From a bacterium (lineage in GTDB: Bacteria; UBA8248), in assembly GCA_965200245.1 (NCBI GenBank), contig CBDATS010000005.1, positions 256,001-320,000 on the forward strand: a DNA stretch of 64,000 nucleotides, given 5' to 3'. The position numbers and the translations under genes are program-made. The notes beneath the pieces are model-generated. The model was given only the letters and a program-made list of their open reading frames with translations. It was not told the origin of the DNA and did not search any database. This document shows positions 25,812 to 32,792 of the stretch, in pieces; position 1 is the first letter of the stretch; the number at the start of each line of letters is the position of its first letter.

Positions 25812-26462
25812 AAGAACTCCTCCATTTTTCTTAACTACGGCAAAAATAATACCCTGGAAGGATATCGTCAGGTTTCAGTGAACCCTGTACGATAAGGACC
25901 CTTTGGCATGTTCAGGATTCGCCGTGGACTCTATCATCTAGTGCCTTTAAGATCAAAAATCCAAAACCAAAACAAGCGGGTCGAAAACCGTTTTCACCAA
26001 CGAAGGTCAGGCGTCGCCGGTTTCCTCTTAAATCCGTATGGCCACTTTAGCCCGAAGCCCATAGGACCTTCGTTGATAATGAGGCGGGCACCAGGAACGC
26101 CTTTGCGTTTCATCAGAAGCGATCCAGCAACGAAATTCAAAGTTCACCGTATCGAACATTTCTGGATACCTCCCTTCGACCTAAAGGGAATTCCGCTTTC
26201 TGTGCTCATGTCAGCGTTGATAAGACCCACAATGGAACGAGATTGGAAAACCCAAAAACTGCTTGCTTGATAAGTATTTGCCGATAATCGACAAGCCTTC
26301 TTCCCTGAGTCGCAGATGAATAGTGGTAATCACTACAGCAGGATGTGAAATGCAGCCGTTTATTGATGTATGGTATGCAAGAATGAAACGCGGGCAAACA
26401 AGAAGTGATGGCTCGTGGAGATATGAAAATTGTCTGACGCAAAAAAGTGCTTGTCCAGATTG

Positions 26463-27713
26463 ATGCTACTATACACCTTGTTCGCAGCTGGGTTGTTACT
26501 TTCCGGCTGCGCCGACTCCCTTCACCCCAAGGTAAAACCAAGTTCCGTCAAAATCCTGAAAAACGCCATTGAGGTGGAGTTCAACGAACTGACCCGTGAA
26601 TTCGACCTAATCGACCAAAAAGGCGACTTGGCCCTTTGCGCTCCCCTGCACTTCGGGGTAGCGCGTTTCGCCGTCTATCAGGCAGTGGAGGAAAAAAGAA
26701 CTGCCACCATGGCACAATTGACCCGCTTCATCATCAGGGCACGAGCGGCTATCAAGCGGGCGGAAGAGAAGATGAAAAAAAATCAGTGCGTCGACCAGGA
26801 CGGTGACGGACTTACCGATCTTGTGGAAAACCACAAATACAATACCCAGCCGGATAACGCCGACACCGATGGAGATGAGGTTTCCGACACCCTAGAAATC
26901 CGCCGGTACCGAACCAACCCGCTCAAGGCCGATACGGATGGCGACCTGCTTGACGATGGAGACGAAATATCACGCGGCTTGAATCCGCTGCTCACTGATA
27001 GCGACGGGGACGGATATATCGACGGCATCGAGATCGCTCAAGGTTCGAACGCACGCGATGCATGTTCACAGCCACTAGATGCACAAAATCTAGACCGACT
27101 GCACGAATGCAGACCGAAACGAATTCATGCCAAACCCGTCCAAGCCAAGACACCACAAGAACGAACTCCAGTGACCACACTCAAGACGAAACAAATCTCG
27201 GACAAAAAGAGATTGCACAAGGCCGAAAAACCGAAAACGAAGCCTGCTTCCTCGTCATCCCCTAAAAGGCACCGAAAGCCCGAAAAAGTGAAGTTCGAGG
27301 ACAGAAAGCTGAAACCTTCTATCACCAGCAACGGGGCATATCCGGGGCAAAAAAATCAGGTGCCGCGAACCCTCCAAGAAAATACCACCACTTCTTCTGA
27401 CAATGCGGCACCAGCCAGTTCCGACCTCCATCATGCCAACGTGAATCACAATGAGATACTCATCCCCATACGGCCGAAAGCGAATCAACACGAAACGTCA
27501 AAAACAAATCTCGAGGAAAAACCAGGCAAGGCAAACCGCGAAGAACCTCAGGTTCACGCGCCTCTCACCGTTTCTCTCGCAGAGAACCACGAAAAACCGG
27601 AAAAACCCGCCGAAGCATCTTCCGTACCCCAATTTCCGAAGCCTGCCCTAAAAAAGAGATTTCCTCCTTCAAACGAGAAATTCCCCTCCGCGATTTTCAT
27701 GAGGTTGTGGTAG
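26463..27713 (+). CDS. Lipoprotein with Ca-binding DxDxDG (thrombospondin type 3-like) repeats and a K/P-rich disordered tail
   Basis: Lipobox LLSG-C; DQDGDG, DTDGDE, DTDGDL, DSDGDG repeats; start site uncertain. Confidence 0.72.
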
Positions 27714-27862
27714 AGTCAGTTTTATCATTCTTGGTTGACTACAGATGTACATGCCGGAACGCGACCGGCCATTCATCATGGATACTATCTACCCGAGAAC
27801 CAATAACCATCGCATCGCGATTTGCATCGTTTTTTCTTCGTAGAACAATAGGAGCAAAGAAC

Positions 27863-29554
27863 ATGACGGAGCAGAAAACAGCCCTGAACCGATTCAGCTG
27901 CCGTATCACCCAGCCGCCCTCACAGGCTGCCTCTCAGGCCATGCTCTACGGTGCGGGGCTGGATGAAATCGACATGAAAAACCCACAGGTCGGCATCGCC
28001 AGCATGTGGTGGGAGGGAAATTCCTGCAACTTTCACCTAAACCGGCTTGCCGAATACATCAAGCAAAGTGTGAATGACGAAAAAAAAATGGTCGGCCTCA
28101 TTTTCAACACTATCGGCGTAAGCGACGGTATCTCCATGGGCACGGAAGGCATGAGATACTCCCTCCAGTCGCGAGACCTCATCGCCGATTCAATTGAGAC
28201 CGTCGTCGGCGCGCAGTGGTACGACGCCTTGGTCACCCTCCCGGGATGTGACAAGAACATGCCCGGTTCCATTATGGCAATGGCGCGACTCGACCGACCC
28301 AGCCTCATGGTATATGGCGGCACTATCAGTCCGGGATTCCTTAACGGAGAGAAGCTGGACGTAGTTTCCGCTTTCCAGGCTTATGGAGAGTACTTTTCCG
28401 AAAAAATCGATGAAGAGCGCTTCCAGTCGATCATCCGGCACGCCTGCCCGAGCGGGGGCGCATGCGGTGGCATGTATACGGCGAACACGATGTCCTCATC
28501 CATTGAAACGCTTGGAATGAGCCTACCCTACAGCTCGTCAAATCCCGCCATGAGCGATGACAAGAAAAACGAGTGCCACGACGTGGGAAAAGCCATTTAT
28601 CATCTGCTTGAGAACGACATCAAGCCCAGCGACATCATGACGAAACAAGCGTTCGAGAACGCGATCACCATCATTATGGCACTCGGCGGTTCTACGAACG
28701 CCGTGCTTCACTATATCGCGATCGCCAAAGCGGTTGGAGTCGAACTCACTATCAACGACTTTCAGGAAATCAGTGACAGAACGCCTTACATTGCGGACTT
28801 AAAACCCAGCGGGAAATTCGTCATGGAAGATCTCCACGACGTTGGCGGCGTGCCTGCCGTTCAAAAACTTCTCCTGAAAGAAGGTCTGCTCCACGGCGAT
28901 TGCCTCACCGTCACAGGCAAAACGCTCGGCGAAAACATCGAAGCCTTGCCCGACCTCCATGCGGACCAGAAAATCATCGTGCCACTTTCCTCCCCCATCA
29001 AGAAAACGGGGCACCTCCAGATTCTCTACGGAAACCTTGCGAGCGAGGGTGCCGTCGCCAAAATTACGGGAAAAGAGGGAGAGCGATTCGAGGGTCCTGC
29101 ACGCTGTTTTGATTCCGAGGAAGACGCCCTGAAAGGCCTGGAAGAGAAGAAGGTGAAAAAAGGTGACGTCGTCATCATCCGTTACGAAGGCCCTAAGGGC
29201 GGCCCGGGGATGCGGGAGATGCTCACGGTTACCTCCGCGATCATGGGAGCTGGTCTTGGAAACGACCTCGCCCTCATCACGGACGGCAGGTTTTCGGGCG
29301 GCACGCACGGCTTCGTCGTCGGGCACGTCACGCCCGAAGCCCAAAGCGGCGGTCTTCTCGCACTTGTCGAAGACGGCGACACAGTTCTGATCGACGCCCA
29401 AAATCGCGTTATGGAACTCAAGATACCCGAGGAGGAGATTGAGAGACGGCGTATGGCCTGGAGTGCACCCCCGCTGAAATTCACGAAAGGCACGCTCTAT
29501 AAATACGCCAAATGCGTATCTTCAGCTTCTGAAGGATGCGTGACAGACGAATAG
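27863..29554 (+). CDS. ilvD: Dihydroxy-acid dehydratase
   Basis: [43 protein letters not shown]. Confidence 0.96.
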
Positions 29555-29624
29555 AAGCAGGACAAAAGAACAGGAGAGAGGAGAGCAAACGACTCCCCTC
29601 TTCATTTGTAACCAATTTACTCGC

Positions 29625-30089
29625 CTATGTTGCGCCGGTTTTCCTTTTACGGTTGGCGTATTCCTTGAAATACCCTGCGATAAAGGAGTTCTCTCAGTCG
29701 AAATCGACGTCGCGCGCCTTTTGCAATACTTCGTCTCCGCCCAAGTCTTCTTCTTCGGCTAGATGAATCAACGAGCAAATCCCGGCTCGCCTCACGCCTT
29801 TTCAATGAACGTACACCAGACCGTCTTTTCTGGCCTTGTGAAGTGTTTGGTGGATTTCCGTCGACAATTCTTCGTTTATGCTATCGGCATTCACGGGGAT
29901 ATGCACGAAATTCATACCCAGTTCACACGCCGCTTTTCTCTCCGCATCGAGTGGCAGTTCCAACTCTTCTTCATCAGCCGAACGAACATTCACAACAAAT
30001 TTTATCCCTTTGTCCGCCAGAATCTTCATATCTGTTTTGCCAGGCTGACTTCCAAACACGAGATTTTCAGCCAACTCGAAATAACCCAT
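29625..30089 (-). CDS. DUF442/PTP-fold (sulfurtransferase-like) protein with two predicted Sec (TGA 29802-29804 and 29694-29696)
   Basis: GSQP..GIKFVVNVR..FVHIPV..VYVH-TGA-KGVRRAG matches the HCx4R loop; frame continues ..ARDVDFD-TGA-ENSFIAGYFKEYANRK.. to TAG at 29625. Confidence 0.8.
29770..29791 (-). promoter_or_regulatory. Putative SECIS hairpin
   Basis: GGCGAGC-CGGGAUUU-GCUCGUU, spanning +11 to +32 after the first UGA. Confidence 0.55.
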
Positions 30090-30113
30090 TCGATTTCTCC
30101 CGTATATTTGTTT

Positions 30114-30956
30114 TCAAACTCGTTGCACCAGTTCTCGACAACGAAGCAGGCAGGTCACCTTTTGCTCTTCCCCGTCACGCTTGTAAATCCCAAGCAGATT
30201 ATTAATCATTCTCTCCACAATGCGGCGGGGTGGTGTTTCCTGTAAAAACCGCATATCGAAATGATATCCGAGCCCCCGTACAATCGTCGCACAATCCTCT
30301 ACGTTCAAGCGTTTTCCTCTCTCGAAGGGATCTAAAAATATAGGGTCCCCTTCACCTTGATATTTGACGATGAAATGTCCCGGCATCCCGACTCCATGAA
30401 AAGGGAGTTTCAGCCGTCTGCCAAGAATCAAATATAAAGCAGAAAGCGATATGGGAATGCCCCGTCTCCGCTCCAGAACGCAATTCATGAAGCTATTCTG
30501 CGCAGCATAATAACTATCACGAGCTCCATCGAAGCGAAGCTCTCCGTGCAAGTATTCCACGACTTCATCGACGATGGCGTCCGCCCGGTTCATGCCCTCC
30601 AAACGTTCAAGCAAATGATTTTCCATGCCAAGCAGTTCGTCTTTATTCAACCTCAAGTCTTCGAGTGGATGGCCGAAGGACGCCAACAAGAAGCACGCGT
30701 CTTCCAGGTTCGCATCTTCTACCGAGGAAAGTGACCAGTCCGCAAAAGCGATTTCGATTTGATTGTAATGGAATTGCAGCAGCGACGGAGGAAGAATCAC
30801 CTCGTTCGCCTCACTTCTCTTCATCATGCAAAGAAGTCTTCTCTGCTCGTCAGTCGAGAATCCGGAAACCTGTCGGTCCAAAACCGTCGTTACATCTGGT
30901 GAACCGTCACTCAACAAATGACAGATGGCCTCTAATTGCGAGTCACTCAAAGACAA
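30114..30956 (-). CDS. SirB1 family (transglutaminase-like) protein
   Basis: NSFMNCVLERRRGIPISLS, GVGMPGHF, DPF..G, RMINNL. Confidence 0.88.
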   Translation of the reverse strand: MSLSDSQLEAICHLLSDGSPDVTTVLDRQVSGFSTDEQRRLLCMMKRSEANEVILPPSLLQFHYNQIEIAFADWSLSSVEDANLEDACFLLASFGHPLEDLRLNKDELLGMENHLLERLEGMNRADAIVDEVVEYLHGELRFDGARDSYYAAQNSFMNCVLERRRGIPISLSALYLILGRRLKLPFHGVGMPGHFIVKYQGEGDPIFLDPFERGKRLNVEDCATIVRGLGYHFDMRFLQETPPRRIVERMINNLLGIYKRDGEEQKVTCLLRCRELVQRV

Positions 30957-31166
30957 AATAGAACTCCTTCATGATTATACCCTGAACAAACCAGGCAAAA
31001 TCAGTATAACTTCCATTCCTTGCATCATCTCACCAAGCTACATCTGCATTGATTAGTCAGGGACATAATTCCCCCTCGCGATTCGCTCATCCCCTAGTCA
31101 CGGCATTTGCATTATGGTATTTTAATTTGAGCTTATTCACAATTCGCATACAACGAGAGACATGTC

Positions 31167-32792
31167 ATGACCACATATGCTGACGTGGTTGCGGACGTTC
31201 TTGAGGACGCAGGCATCGAGTTTATATTTGGGGTGCCTGGAAGCTTAAGTTCAGTCGAACTCATCGAAGCCGCCAGAAAACGCGACATTCGCTACATCCT
31301 TTGCAGTAACGAGAGCAGCGCTGCCGTGATGGCGGGGACATACGGAATCATGACGAGGCGGCCAGGAGTCGTCAGCACAGGAGTCGGTCCGGGGGCGGCT
31401 GCCGTCCTCCACGGCGTGGCAAACAATTTCCTGGAACGCGCACCATGCCTTATTTTGACCGACCGCTTCTCTGATGAACAGTTCCGCCGTCAAGGCAGGC
31501 AAAGGCTTGATCAGGATCGGTTGCTGCGCCCCATTACAAAAGCCACCTTCAAACTCGCGAAGGATAACGCGGCGGTAGTCATCAGACGGGCACTGACTCT
31601 GGCCAACGAAGGGAGGCCGGGGCCCGTACATGTGGATCTCCCGTACGACGTAATGCAGGCGAGCGCAGGAAAAGATGATTTCCCTCCTAAAGAGGACCCT
31701 CAGAAATATATTGGACGCATCGGGTCGGCTCACCCGGGAATCCGCACTACTCTCAAGGCGATCTCGGAGTCGAGCAACCCGATAGTGATCGCGGGGTTGC
31801 AGGTAAACCGATCGGGAGAAGAGGCGAAAAAAGAGTTCGTTTCTTTCGCCGAAAAACTCGGAGCTCCCGTTCTCGCCGCACCCTCTGCGAAGGGCGTGTT
31901 GCCGGAACACCACCCCCTCGCCATGGGTACCTTCCGGGGTGCTCCATCAGAACGGGAATTGATCGACAAGTCGGACCTGTTCATCTTGGTAGGCTTCGAT
32001 ACGGTAGAAGTATTCGCTCCCGGACATTGGGACTATTCCCAACGGGTGATCAATCTGGACGAAGTACCTCACCTTGATGACTTGATTCGCCCGGAAATCG
32101 AAGTCGTCTCAAATCTGGCAGACATACTCAGGGAATTGAGCGTTTCGGTCCCGGCCAACCATGCCTGGAACACCGAAGAGATGGATTCCTACAAGAAAAT
32201 GCGACAATCCGCGTTGTTCCCAACCGGAGAAGGCTTGATGCCCGGAGCCGTGATTCGGGTTGCGCGGGAATGCTTGCCCAACAACGGCATCATGACCGCG
32301 GATGCGGGAAGCCACAAGGTACTGGCCAACGATATCTGGGAGACGAGACGTCCTTTGGGTTATATGACCTCCAGCGGACTTGGTTCCATGGCAGTCGCCA
32401 CACCAGCCGCCATGGCCGCCAAACTGGTAGAACCGGATACGCCCGTTGTTTGCCTTACCGGGGATGGTGGCTTTCTGATGCGGATTGGCGATATGGAGGT
32501 CGCCGTTCGAGAAAACATCCCTTTCGTCACTGTCGTATTTAACGACCGCTACCTGAATCTGATTAAAATCAAACAAGACAACCGTTCTTTCCCCCGACTC
32601 GGGACGGAGTTCCGGGATTCAGACTATTCTGCAGTGGCGAGAGGACTGGGTTGTGAGGGAGAAAGGGTTGCATCAGAGGAAGAGTTGAGAAACGCGCTCG
32701 GTAACGCTTTTGCATCGGACAAACCCTGGGTCATCGACGCCGCAATCAACCCCGACGGCTATGTGGCTTCAAAAGATGTCCGCGCAGAATAA
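31167..32792 (+). CDS. Thiamine pyrophosphate-dependent enzyme (acetolactate synthase-like)
   Basis: FGVPG, NESSAA, GPG, GDGG..N TPP motif. Confidence 0.88.
   Translation: MTTYADVVADVLEDAGIEFIFGVPGSLSSVELIEAARKRDIRYILCSNESSAAVMAGTYGIMTRRPGVVSTGVGPGAAAVLHGVANNFLERAPCLILTDRFSDEQFRRQGRQRLDQDRLLRPITKATFKLAKDNAAVVIRRALTLANEGRPGPVHVDLPYDVMQASAGKDDFPPKEDPQKYIGRIGSAHPGIRTTLKAISESSNPIVIAGLQVNRSGEEAKKEFVSFAEKLGAPVLAAPSAKGVLPEHHPLAMGTFRGAPSERELIDKSDLFILVGFDTVEVFAPGHWDYSQRVINLDEVPHLDDLIRPEIEVVSNLADILRELSVSVPANHAWNTEEMDSYKKMRQSALFPTGEGLMPGAVIRVARECLPNNGIMTADAGSHKVLANDIWETRRPLGYMTSSGLGSMAVATPAAMAAKLVEPDTPVVCLTGDGGFLMRIGDMEVAVRENIPFVTVVFNDRYLNLIKIKQDNRSFPRLGTEFRDSDYSAVARGLGCEGERVASEEELRNALGNAFASDKPWVIDAAINPDGYVASKDVRAE

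Follow-up and report, generated by a model that had tools for sequence, protein, structure and literature searches.

Rhodanese-type sulfurtransferase activity has been measured for the DUF442 domain of the Xylella Blh protein (parts of PMC5823870) and for a DUF442 domain fused to SQR in Cupriavidus pinatubonensis, where Cys94 is the catalytic residue (parts of PMC9163753). These measurements, both made on cysteine-dependent (Cys-type) domains, agree with a first-pass annotation of the DNA considered here, made from its letters alone, which had described DUF442 domains as sulfurtransferases. The DNA in question, hereafter the window, is a 64,000-nt bacterial stretch (positions 256,001 to 320,000 of contig CBDATS010000005.1, assembly GCA_965200245.1), and its minus strand carries at 29625-30089 a gene which, judging from its reading frame, profile matches, homologue alignment and structural model, appears to encode a selenocysteine (Sec) form of a PTP-fold, sulfurtransferase-like DUF442 protein. 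The predicted product shares with the Cys-type domains (Xylella and Agrobacterium Blh, the C. pinatubonensis SQR fusion) the fold, the H-C-x4-R-[AS]-G loop, a domain length of ~150 aa and the like position of the nucleophile (residue 96 here, Cys94 in C. pinatubonensis). Unlike them, it would have Sec instead of Cys; it stands as a protein of its own, with no dioxygenase or SQR domain attached, and it is accompanied by a SirB1-like partner gene rather than residing in an sqr-pdo or bigR operon. It also carries, nine positions past the nucleophile, an invariant Cys, a residue present there in only six of the best 150 distant relatives. Overall, we consider it probable that this gene specifies a Sec-containing, sulfurtransferase-like DUF442 enzyme, and that a second in-frame TGA further downstream (TGA2) is a premature stop.

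The gene starts with an ATG at 30089-30087 (minus strand, as for all its features), preceded by GGGAG 7 nt upstream. The open reading frame (ORF) as called comprises 95 codons and ends with VYVH immediately before a TGA at 29804-29802 (UGA1). Past this codon the frame continues as U-KGVRRAGICSLIHLAEEEDLGGDEVLQKARDVDFD, in which the loop begins U-KGVRRAGICSL and the segment ends with DVDFD in front of TGA2 (29696-29694); after TGA2 it proceeds as ENSFIAGYFKEYANRKRKTGAT to a TAG at 29627-29625. With both TGA codons read through, the ATG-to-TAG length is 154 codons, and if TGA2 terminates translation the product would have 131 residues. The ORF and the read-through frame reported in the first-pass annotation are thereby reproduced exactly, in coordinates, translation and length.

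Comparison with homologues supports UGA1 as a Sec codon. We translated 46 homologous genes from Nitrospinota, comprising 30 of the best loci (the window's own gene included) and 16 second, paralogue-type loci. Every one has TGA as its catalytic codon, within the motif V-H-U-[KR]-x-x-G-R-A-G-[IV]-C-S-L; all retain the frame, and their sequences can be recognised as far as residue ~150 even where identity drops to 34%; in all of them the pattern RAG[IV]CSL...[FLY][DN]W follows the TGA. None of the intact genes translated has another stop codon in place of UGA1. When 51 genomes of the phylum were searched in six frames, 35 gave matches, and 57 of the 58 match rows contained an in-frame TGA. In a public collection of 5.8 billion proteins (searched over lengths of 84-270 aa), 22 matches were found and none was longer than 95 aa: 20 have exactly this length (the window's own among them), the other two have 90 and 84 aa, and one of the 22 is named 'sulfur transferase domain-containing protein [Nitrospinae bacterium]'. 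Gene callers thus stop at UGA1, and the databases list these proteins without their catalytic loop.

Distant relatives point to the residue which UGA1 replaces. A profile of 30 sequences recovered 6647 relatives among 1.84 billion representatives, and in the best 150 of these the catalytic column is occupied by Cys in 135, Ser in six, Asp in two and Gly in one; the remaining six have a gap, four of them being proteins that end at the preceding His. The nearest full-length Cys form among the profile relatives (P0023) has HCKAIGRAGVCS. A sequence search of the PDB returned 2F46 as the sole match, with its active-site Cys aligned with U96, and H95, U96, R101, A102 and G103 are invariant across 30 aligned homologues. 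UGA1 (29802-29804, residue 96) is thus placed by both alignments at the catalytic position of an H-U-x4-R-A-G loop, in keeping with the earlier proposal that the first TGA coincides with the nucleophile of a C-x4-R loop. A separate observation concerns the database protein P0029 (94 aa), in which the first ~56 residues of the family run straight into the C-terminal part, so that both the Sec codon and the active-site loop are left out. Either an in-frame deletion or an error of assembly may account for it.

The genome has what Sec decoding takes. A tRNA-Sec is present (75.9 bits; called tRNA-SeC with anticodon TCA by ARAGORN), as are selA (572.7 bits), selB (391.9 bits) and selD (338.6 bits), all over their cut-offs. 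The selD gene (locus L018, G000:C8:72779-73741, minus strand) itself contains one in-frame TGA and presumably encodes a selenoprotein as well.

Downstream of UGA1, at 29770-29791 (minus strand), conservation and a published model point to a hairpin of the bacterial Sec insertion sequence (SECIS) type, with a 7-bp stem and the 8-nt loop CGGGAUUU (29784-29777). The stem starts 10 nt 3' of UGA1 and lies within the codons for G-R-A-G-I-C-S-L. The bacterial SECIS model, as given in parts of PMC13188914, sets the loop at 3-9 nt and the stem at 4-16 bp, asks for G in the first two loop positions, places the loop 16-37 nt from the UGA and requires a minimum free energy of <= -7.5 kcal/mol; under a strict scan the hairpin satisfies it (spacing 17 nt, loop 8 nt, stem 7 bp, -8.1 kcal/mol), and no more than 195 of the 4277 TGA/TGG sites of the window have a hairpin this good. 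All seven stem pairs persist throughout the 30 sequences, the only changes being between A-U and G-U (16/14) plus one between G-C and G-U, and all 16 paralogue-type genes (~36% protein identity) have the same hairpin at the same spacing. Among codons 101-107, which encode the hairpin, same-residue codon identity is 1.0 in five and 0.94 and 0.49 in the other two, against ~0.55 (judged by eye) for the rest of the gene, and the 0.49 codon falls at the wobble position that switches A-U to G-U. Because third positions are frozen in this way, the hairpin is probably constrained at the RNA level. An Rfam scan of 29400-30300 at E <= 1 gave no match, nor any to a bacterial SECIS; since Rfam yielded none of the latter, this null is uninformative on the hairpin.

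Several observations weigh against Sec at residue 96. Compensatory double changes occur in none of the seven stem pairs across the 30 sequences; the conserved GRAG-C-S-L peptide could account for part of the nucleotide freezing; the single-sequence fold of the UGA1 region is no better than that of shuffled sequences (z +0.28), so that the significance of the hairpin derives from its conservation and not from its folding energy; and the contigs and RNA contig described below report sequence, not translation. Together with the public gene calls, all of which (among those examined) stop at 95 aa or before, the fold result could be taken to mean that UGA1 is an ordinary stop, the 95-aa ORF being the real product or the gene being dead. 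We regard this reading as extremely improbable. A 95-aa product would be devoid of the entire catalytic loop, the in-frame conservation past UGA1 extends to all 46 genes even at 34-36% identity, TGA is never swapped for another stop in the intact genes translated, and the conserved SECIS-type hairpin is accompanied by a full set of Sec machinery. Conservation, as read from the alignments, already contradicts an ordinary stop, and UGA1 is almost certainly a Sec codon replacing the catalytic Cys.

With respect to the family, the read-through product passes the Pfam cut-offs of PF04273 (DUF442/BLH_phosphatase; 28.3 bits, cut-off 26.1) and PF22741 (29.1 bits, cut-off 27), and it is matched by the N-terminal domain of the NCBIfam Blh model NF040641. 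Of the 22 public proteins, 19 come with PF04273 as their precomputed Pfam label. The assignment is tempered by the fact that the PF04273 score is barely over its cut-off, and that the NCBIfam 'sulfur transferase' model TIGR01244, although aligned from residue 6 to 134 onto positions 5-130 of its 135, gives 45.2 bits, below its cut-off of 85.85; by its profile score, the product is a distant relative of TIGR01244 and not a member by the NCBI threshold. NCBIfam matches at E <= 0.1 were limited to NF040641, TIGR01244 and NF038358, with no selenoprotein model among them. In Pfam, DSPc (23.7 bits, cut-off 33.5) and other PTP families stayed below their cut-offs, and rhodanese (PF00581) gave no match to the product at E <= 0.1.

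The AlphaFold2 (AF2) model (mean pLDDT 90.7; input alignment of 121 sequences) adopts the protein tyrosine phosphatase (PTP) fold. Its best structural matches in the PDB are 2F46 (Neisseria meningitidis NMA1982; TM 0.79/0.85), followed by the DUF442 entry 3GXH (TM 0.72/0.72; Shewanella putrefaciens, as is 3GXG); dual-specificity and archaeal PTPs rank after these two. The Neisseria and Shewanella proteins differ from the product in having Cys rather than Sec, at 17-24% identity, and were deposited as 'putative phosphatase'. The Cys-x5-Arg phosphatases (DUSP26, VHR, Tk-PTP) have the same overall fold (TM 0.66-0.80) and differ in a loop one residue longer than the U-x4-R-A-G loop (U-K-G-V-R-R) found here. 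With this shorter loop and a DSPc score below the cut-off, the product does not fit the classical C-x5-R protein phosphatases, and our literature searches found no natural Sec form of that class. The rhodanese-like selenoproteins (forms 1-5 in Table 1 of PMC13188914) can be viewed as functional analogues, with a sulfurtransferase-type loop and a Sec nucleophile, in an unrelated Pfam family (PF00581). In the explanation favoured above, the product is probably a cytoplasmic, single-domain enzyme of DUF442 type with a PTP fold and a sulfurtransferase-like function.

A mechanism can be proposed on these grounds. UGA1 would be recoded by SelB and tRNA-Sec via the hairpin beginning 10 nt downstream. 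Placed at the start of helix 100-113, U96 would use its selenolate, with Arg101, to attack a sulfane-sulfur (or selenium) donor; an Se-S(Se) intermediate would form, and its sulfur or selenium would then be handed to a thiol acceptor. We infer this sulfur-transfer activity by analogy with the Cys-type domains. Translation would terminate at TGA2, perhaps leakily, leaving a 131-residue protein without the last helix, and this truncation may represent an early stage in the loss of the gene, which two genus-mates have already undergone at this locus. More speculatively, the invariant Cys105, nine residues after U96, could serve as a resolving partner. Cys occupies this position in only six of the best 150 of the 6647 relatives; the Cys form P0023 has it. 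The UGC codon of Cys105 supplies two of the hairpin stem bases, so that RNA constraint offers an alternative reason for its conservation.

The first-pass annotation had gone further, proposing a candidate family with two Sec residues in which TGA2 might encode a resolving Sec. The part of this proposal that concerns UGA1 is supported, as a conserved Sec codon in a Sec-competent genome, and the part that concerns TGA2 is not supported, TGA2 being no feature of the family. In all 45 other Nitrospinota homologues column 132 is TGG (Trp), in the context [FLY]-[DN]-W, and in none is it Cys or TGA; the window has GAC-TGA-GAG where its nearest relatives have GAC-TGG-GAG. By this alignment, TGA2 (29694-29696, codon 132) is a G-to-A change in an otherwise invariant Trp codon, unique to the window's gene among the 46. 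The annotation had also suggested that TGA2 would be the true stop if homologues ended near it or lacked Cys there: they do not end there, their tail being conserved, and they do lack Cys, with Trp in its place. Some paralogues (G017, G019, G022, G031) were considered as further cases of 'two TGA' genes and were rejected, as their second TGA is a true stop after ...RRP and does not fall on column 132. Similarly, three genus-mates (L042, L043, L044) have a TGA that is the Sec codon, with its hairpin, and another that is the true stop ~55 codons further.

The A of TGA2 is real and was not introduced by assembly. Across 29400-30400 a 24-kb contig from run X1 is identical to the window, a contig of X3, from another study, differs from the window only at 29467, and a 246-nt contig of metatranscriptome run X7, covering 29582-29827 and both TGAs, shows no difference; X1 and X3 are both possible sources of the window, and contigs drop minor alleles. 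Run X6, of a third study, spans 29859-30318 only, short of both TGAs. The possibility, raised earlier, that reads would carry TGY at the first site is, for consensus contigs, refuted: at both TGAs these three contig sets agree with the window.

A SECIS hairpin compliant with the model was not found 3' of TGA2 in the strict scan. The region folds into an imperfect hairpin 18-39 nt downstream (29655-29675, minus strand; loop CAAG), with -12.4 kcal/mol, z -0.36 against shuffles and no G in the first two loop positions. Its energy is within the range of the same region in TGG-bearing homologues (-9.8 to -20.5 kcal/mol), and its inner stem is common to the TGG-bearing L025 and L026, because it is encoded by the codons for G-Y-F-K-E-Y. 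Folding energy cannot separate the two post-UGA regions, neither of which beats shuffles. The earlier description of the hairpins as clear after UGA1 and weak after TGA2 therefore stands as to their presence, the first being conserved and the second weak, and not as to energy, that of the first being no better than that of shuffles. According to the established spacing rule, a bacterial SECIS hairpin must sit 3' of its UGA; the UGA1 hairpin lies upstream of TGA2 and is thus unable to serve it.

The orthologue locus is being lost in relatives. Two of the 22 genus-mates have lost it: in G024 the interval between the SirB1-like gene and ilvD (L112, about 2048-2409) contains a decayed orthologue that has acquired TAA stops and deletions and has TGG in place of the catalytic TGA, and in G033 (L114:2337-2420) the orthologue is absent, with the SirB1-like gene and ilvD ~80 nt apart. 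Both keep the paralogue described below (intact in G024), and the orthologue is dispensable in these relatives. Considering the TGG in 45 homologues, the failure to find a hairpin of the SECIS model and this loss, we take TGA2 to be, most probably, a recent and lineage-specific premature stop, possibly a leaky one.

Some features of the locus and its relatives are at odds with a premature stop. In two studies the contig consensus carries the TGA2 allele. The 22 codons past TGA2 (29625-29693 with the TAG, minus strand) are intact, in frame and homologue-like, ending at the ancestral TAG, which is the same as in most genus-mates; dN/dS of this tail against relatives is 0.23-0.62 (controls 0.09-0.35), not clearly higher, albeit over 22 codons only. 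Of the best 150 of the 6647 relatives, 31 have Cys at column 132, 26 have Leu and 13 Trp; 27 have a gap and 53 other residues. The column is, as the alignment has it, a variable and mostly hydrophobic position that Cys can fill. Finally, parts of PMC13326102 report a canonical SECIS in only 87.4% of BSepDB entries, which leaves about one in eight without it.

Taken together with the RNA contig and the weak hairpin, these observations would be compatible with a double selenoprotein, in which both TGAs encode Sec and U132 replaces Trp to act with U96 (e.g. as a resolving residue) by way of a non-canonical SECIS. We find this unlikely: the close homologues have Trp and never Cys or TGA at this column, the hairpin does not qualify and is no stronger than in TGG-bearing homologues, inheriting its shape from the G-Y-F-K-E-Y codons, and the locus is subject to loss. 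The proposal of a resolving Sec at TGA2 is not supported for these reasons, Cys occurring in only 31 of the 150 distant relatives. In the AF2 model residue 132 is in a loop (pLDDT 73) between helices 118-127 and 137-152. As a side observation, among the six relatives with Ser at the catalytic column four have Cys at column 132, as compared with 31 of 150 overall; the numbers are small, and the alignment hints at a functional Cys at this position in some subfamilies.

An intact tail with conservative substitutions, and an allele persisting across two sampling campaigns, could also be explained by leakiness. In bacteria, UGA is the stop codon most often misread by tRNA-Trp, and TGA2 might be a nonsense codon whose near-cognate reading by tRNA-Trp gives some full-length Trp protein, with the tail under selection. 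This too seems improbable, given that 22 codons are too short for selection tests and that a very recent mutation accounts for the same data. There is an even slimmer chance that we are observing the birth of a second Sec site, i.e. that the TGG-to-TGA change in this Sec-rich lineage is already decoded as Sec via a fortuitous non-canonical hairpin. If true, the protein would be a natural two-Sec enzyme of the PTP fold, with TGA as a one-step bridge between Trp and Cys/Sec codons. Under the premature-stop reading, which we prefer, TGA2 instead holds a caution: in a genome that uses Sec, a TGA followed by an intact frame need not be a Sec codon.

As to novelty, the 119 prokaryotic selenoprotein families tabulated in 2026 (Table 1 of PMC13188914) include rhodanese forms and no PF04273, TIGR01244 or PTP-fold entry. 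Full-text searches (with subscription papers and supplementary tables outside their reach) gave no literature linking DUF442 with selenoprotein or selenocysteine with COG3453, and nothing relevant on Sec-containing bacterial selenoproteins of tyrosine phosphatase type with SECIS. Terms for the DUF442 family are absent from the accessible parts of the deep-Sep paper and the BSepDB paper (PMC13326102), supplementary tables lying outside these. The GOS paper (PMC2398784) mentions neither DUF442 nor COG3453; its 'Hypothetical protein GOS_A' has no domain listed and may be related to the Sec-DUF442 protein. The suggestion of the first-pass annotation that the family had not been described as a selenoprotein is consistent with all of this, and in the catalogues examined Sec-DUF442 is a selenoprotein family not yet catalogued. 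If confirmed, it would add a PTP-fold/DUF442 sulfurtransferase to the natural selenoenzymes, and its pairings with SirB1-like and OsmC-like genes would make it possible to test whether selenium use and the handling of sulfane sulfur are linked in this Nitrospinota clade.

The first of these pairings is visible in the window. The upstream neighbour (30114-30956, minus strand), a SirB1-like/Transglut_core2 gene of 280 aa (PF13369, 135 bits; weak SirB1 match), ends with a TGA stop 24 nt before the start of the DUF442-type gene, as had been noted earlier, and is its probable operon partner. A promoter and terminator scan of 29450-31250 returned two promoter-like sites (2.2 expected) and no terminators. 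On the other side lies ilvD (dihydroxy-acid dehydratase; 27707-29554, plus strand), a convergent neighbour named by inspection of its translation only. We fetched 41 loci from named genome records, 25 of them orthologue-type. The SirB1-like gene ends within ~130 nt upstream in 23 of the 25 and 1.2 kb away in the other two, and ilvD adjoins the orthologue in all 25, so that the synteny is conserved and the Sec-DUF442 and SirB1-like genes form a conserved pair. The record titles of the 41 loci are Nitrospinota or Nitrospinaceae where labelled, plus two Candidatus Tectomicrobia; since the search patterns were specific to the clade, confinement to Nitrospinota does not bound the spread of the family.

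Genomes usually have two paralogues, one beside the SirB1-like gene and the other immediately downstream of an OsmC-like selenoprotein gene. For the window's genome the latter is L111:3339-3800; 20 nt separate its start from an OsmC-related selenoprotein gene that has one in-frame TGA, in a U-x-x-T motif, the part of that gene after the TGA scoring 87.6 bits against NF041052 (cut-off 95). Two MBL-fold genes lie upstream of this locus and a TRAP transporter (DctP/Q/M) downstream. The tandem of the two selenoprotein genes occupies L111:2630-3800, i.e. about 487130-488300 of G000:C5, outside the window. Within the window, the ORF list also includes a 427-aa frame at 26430-27713 (plus strand) with a lipoprotein-like N-terminus, acidic D-x-D-G-D repeats that resemble calcium-binding repeats, and a long Lys/Pro-rich tail.

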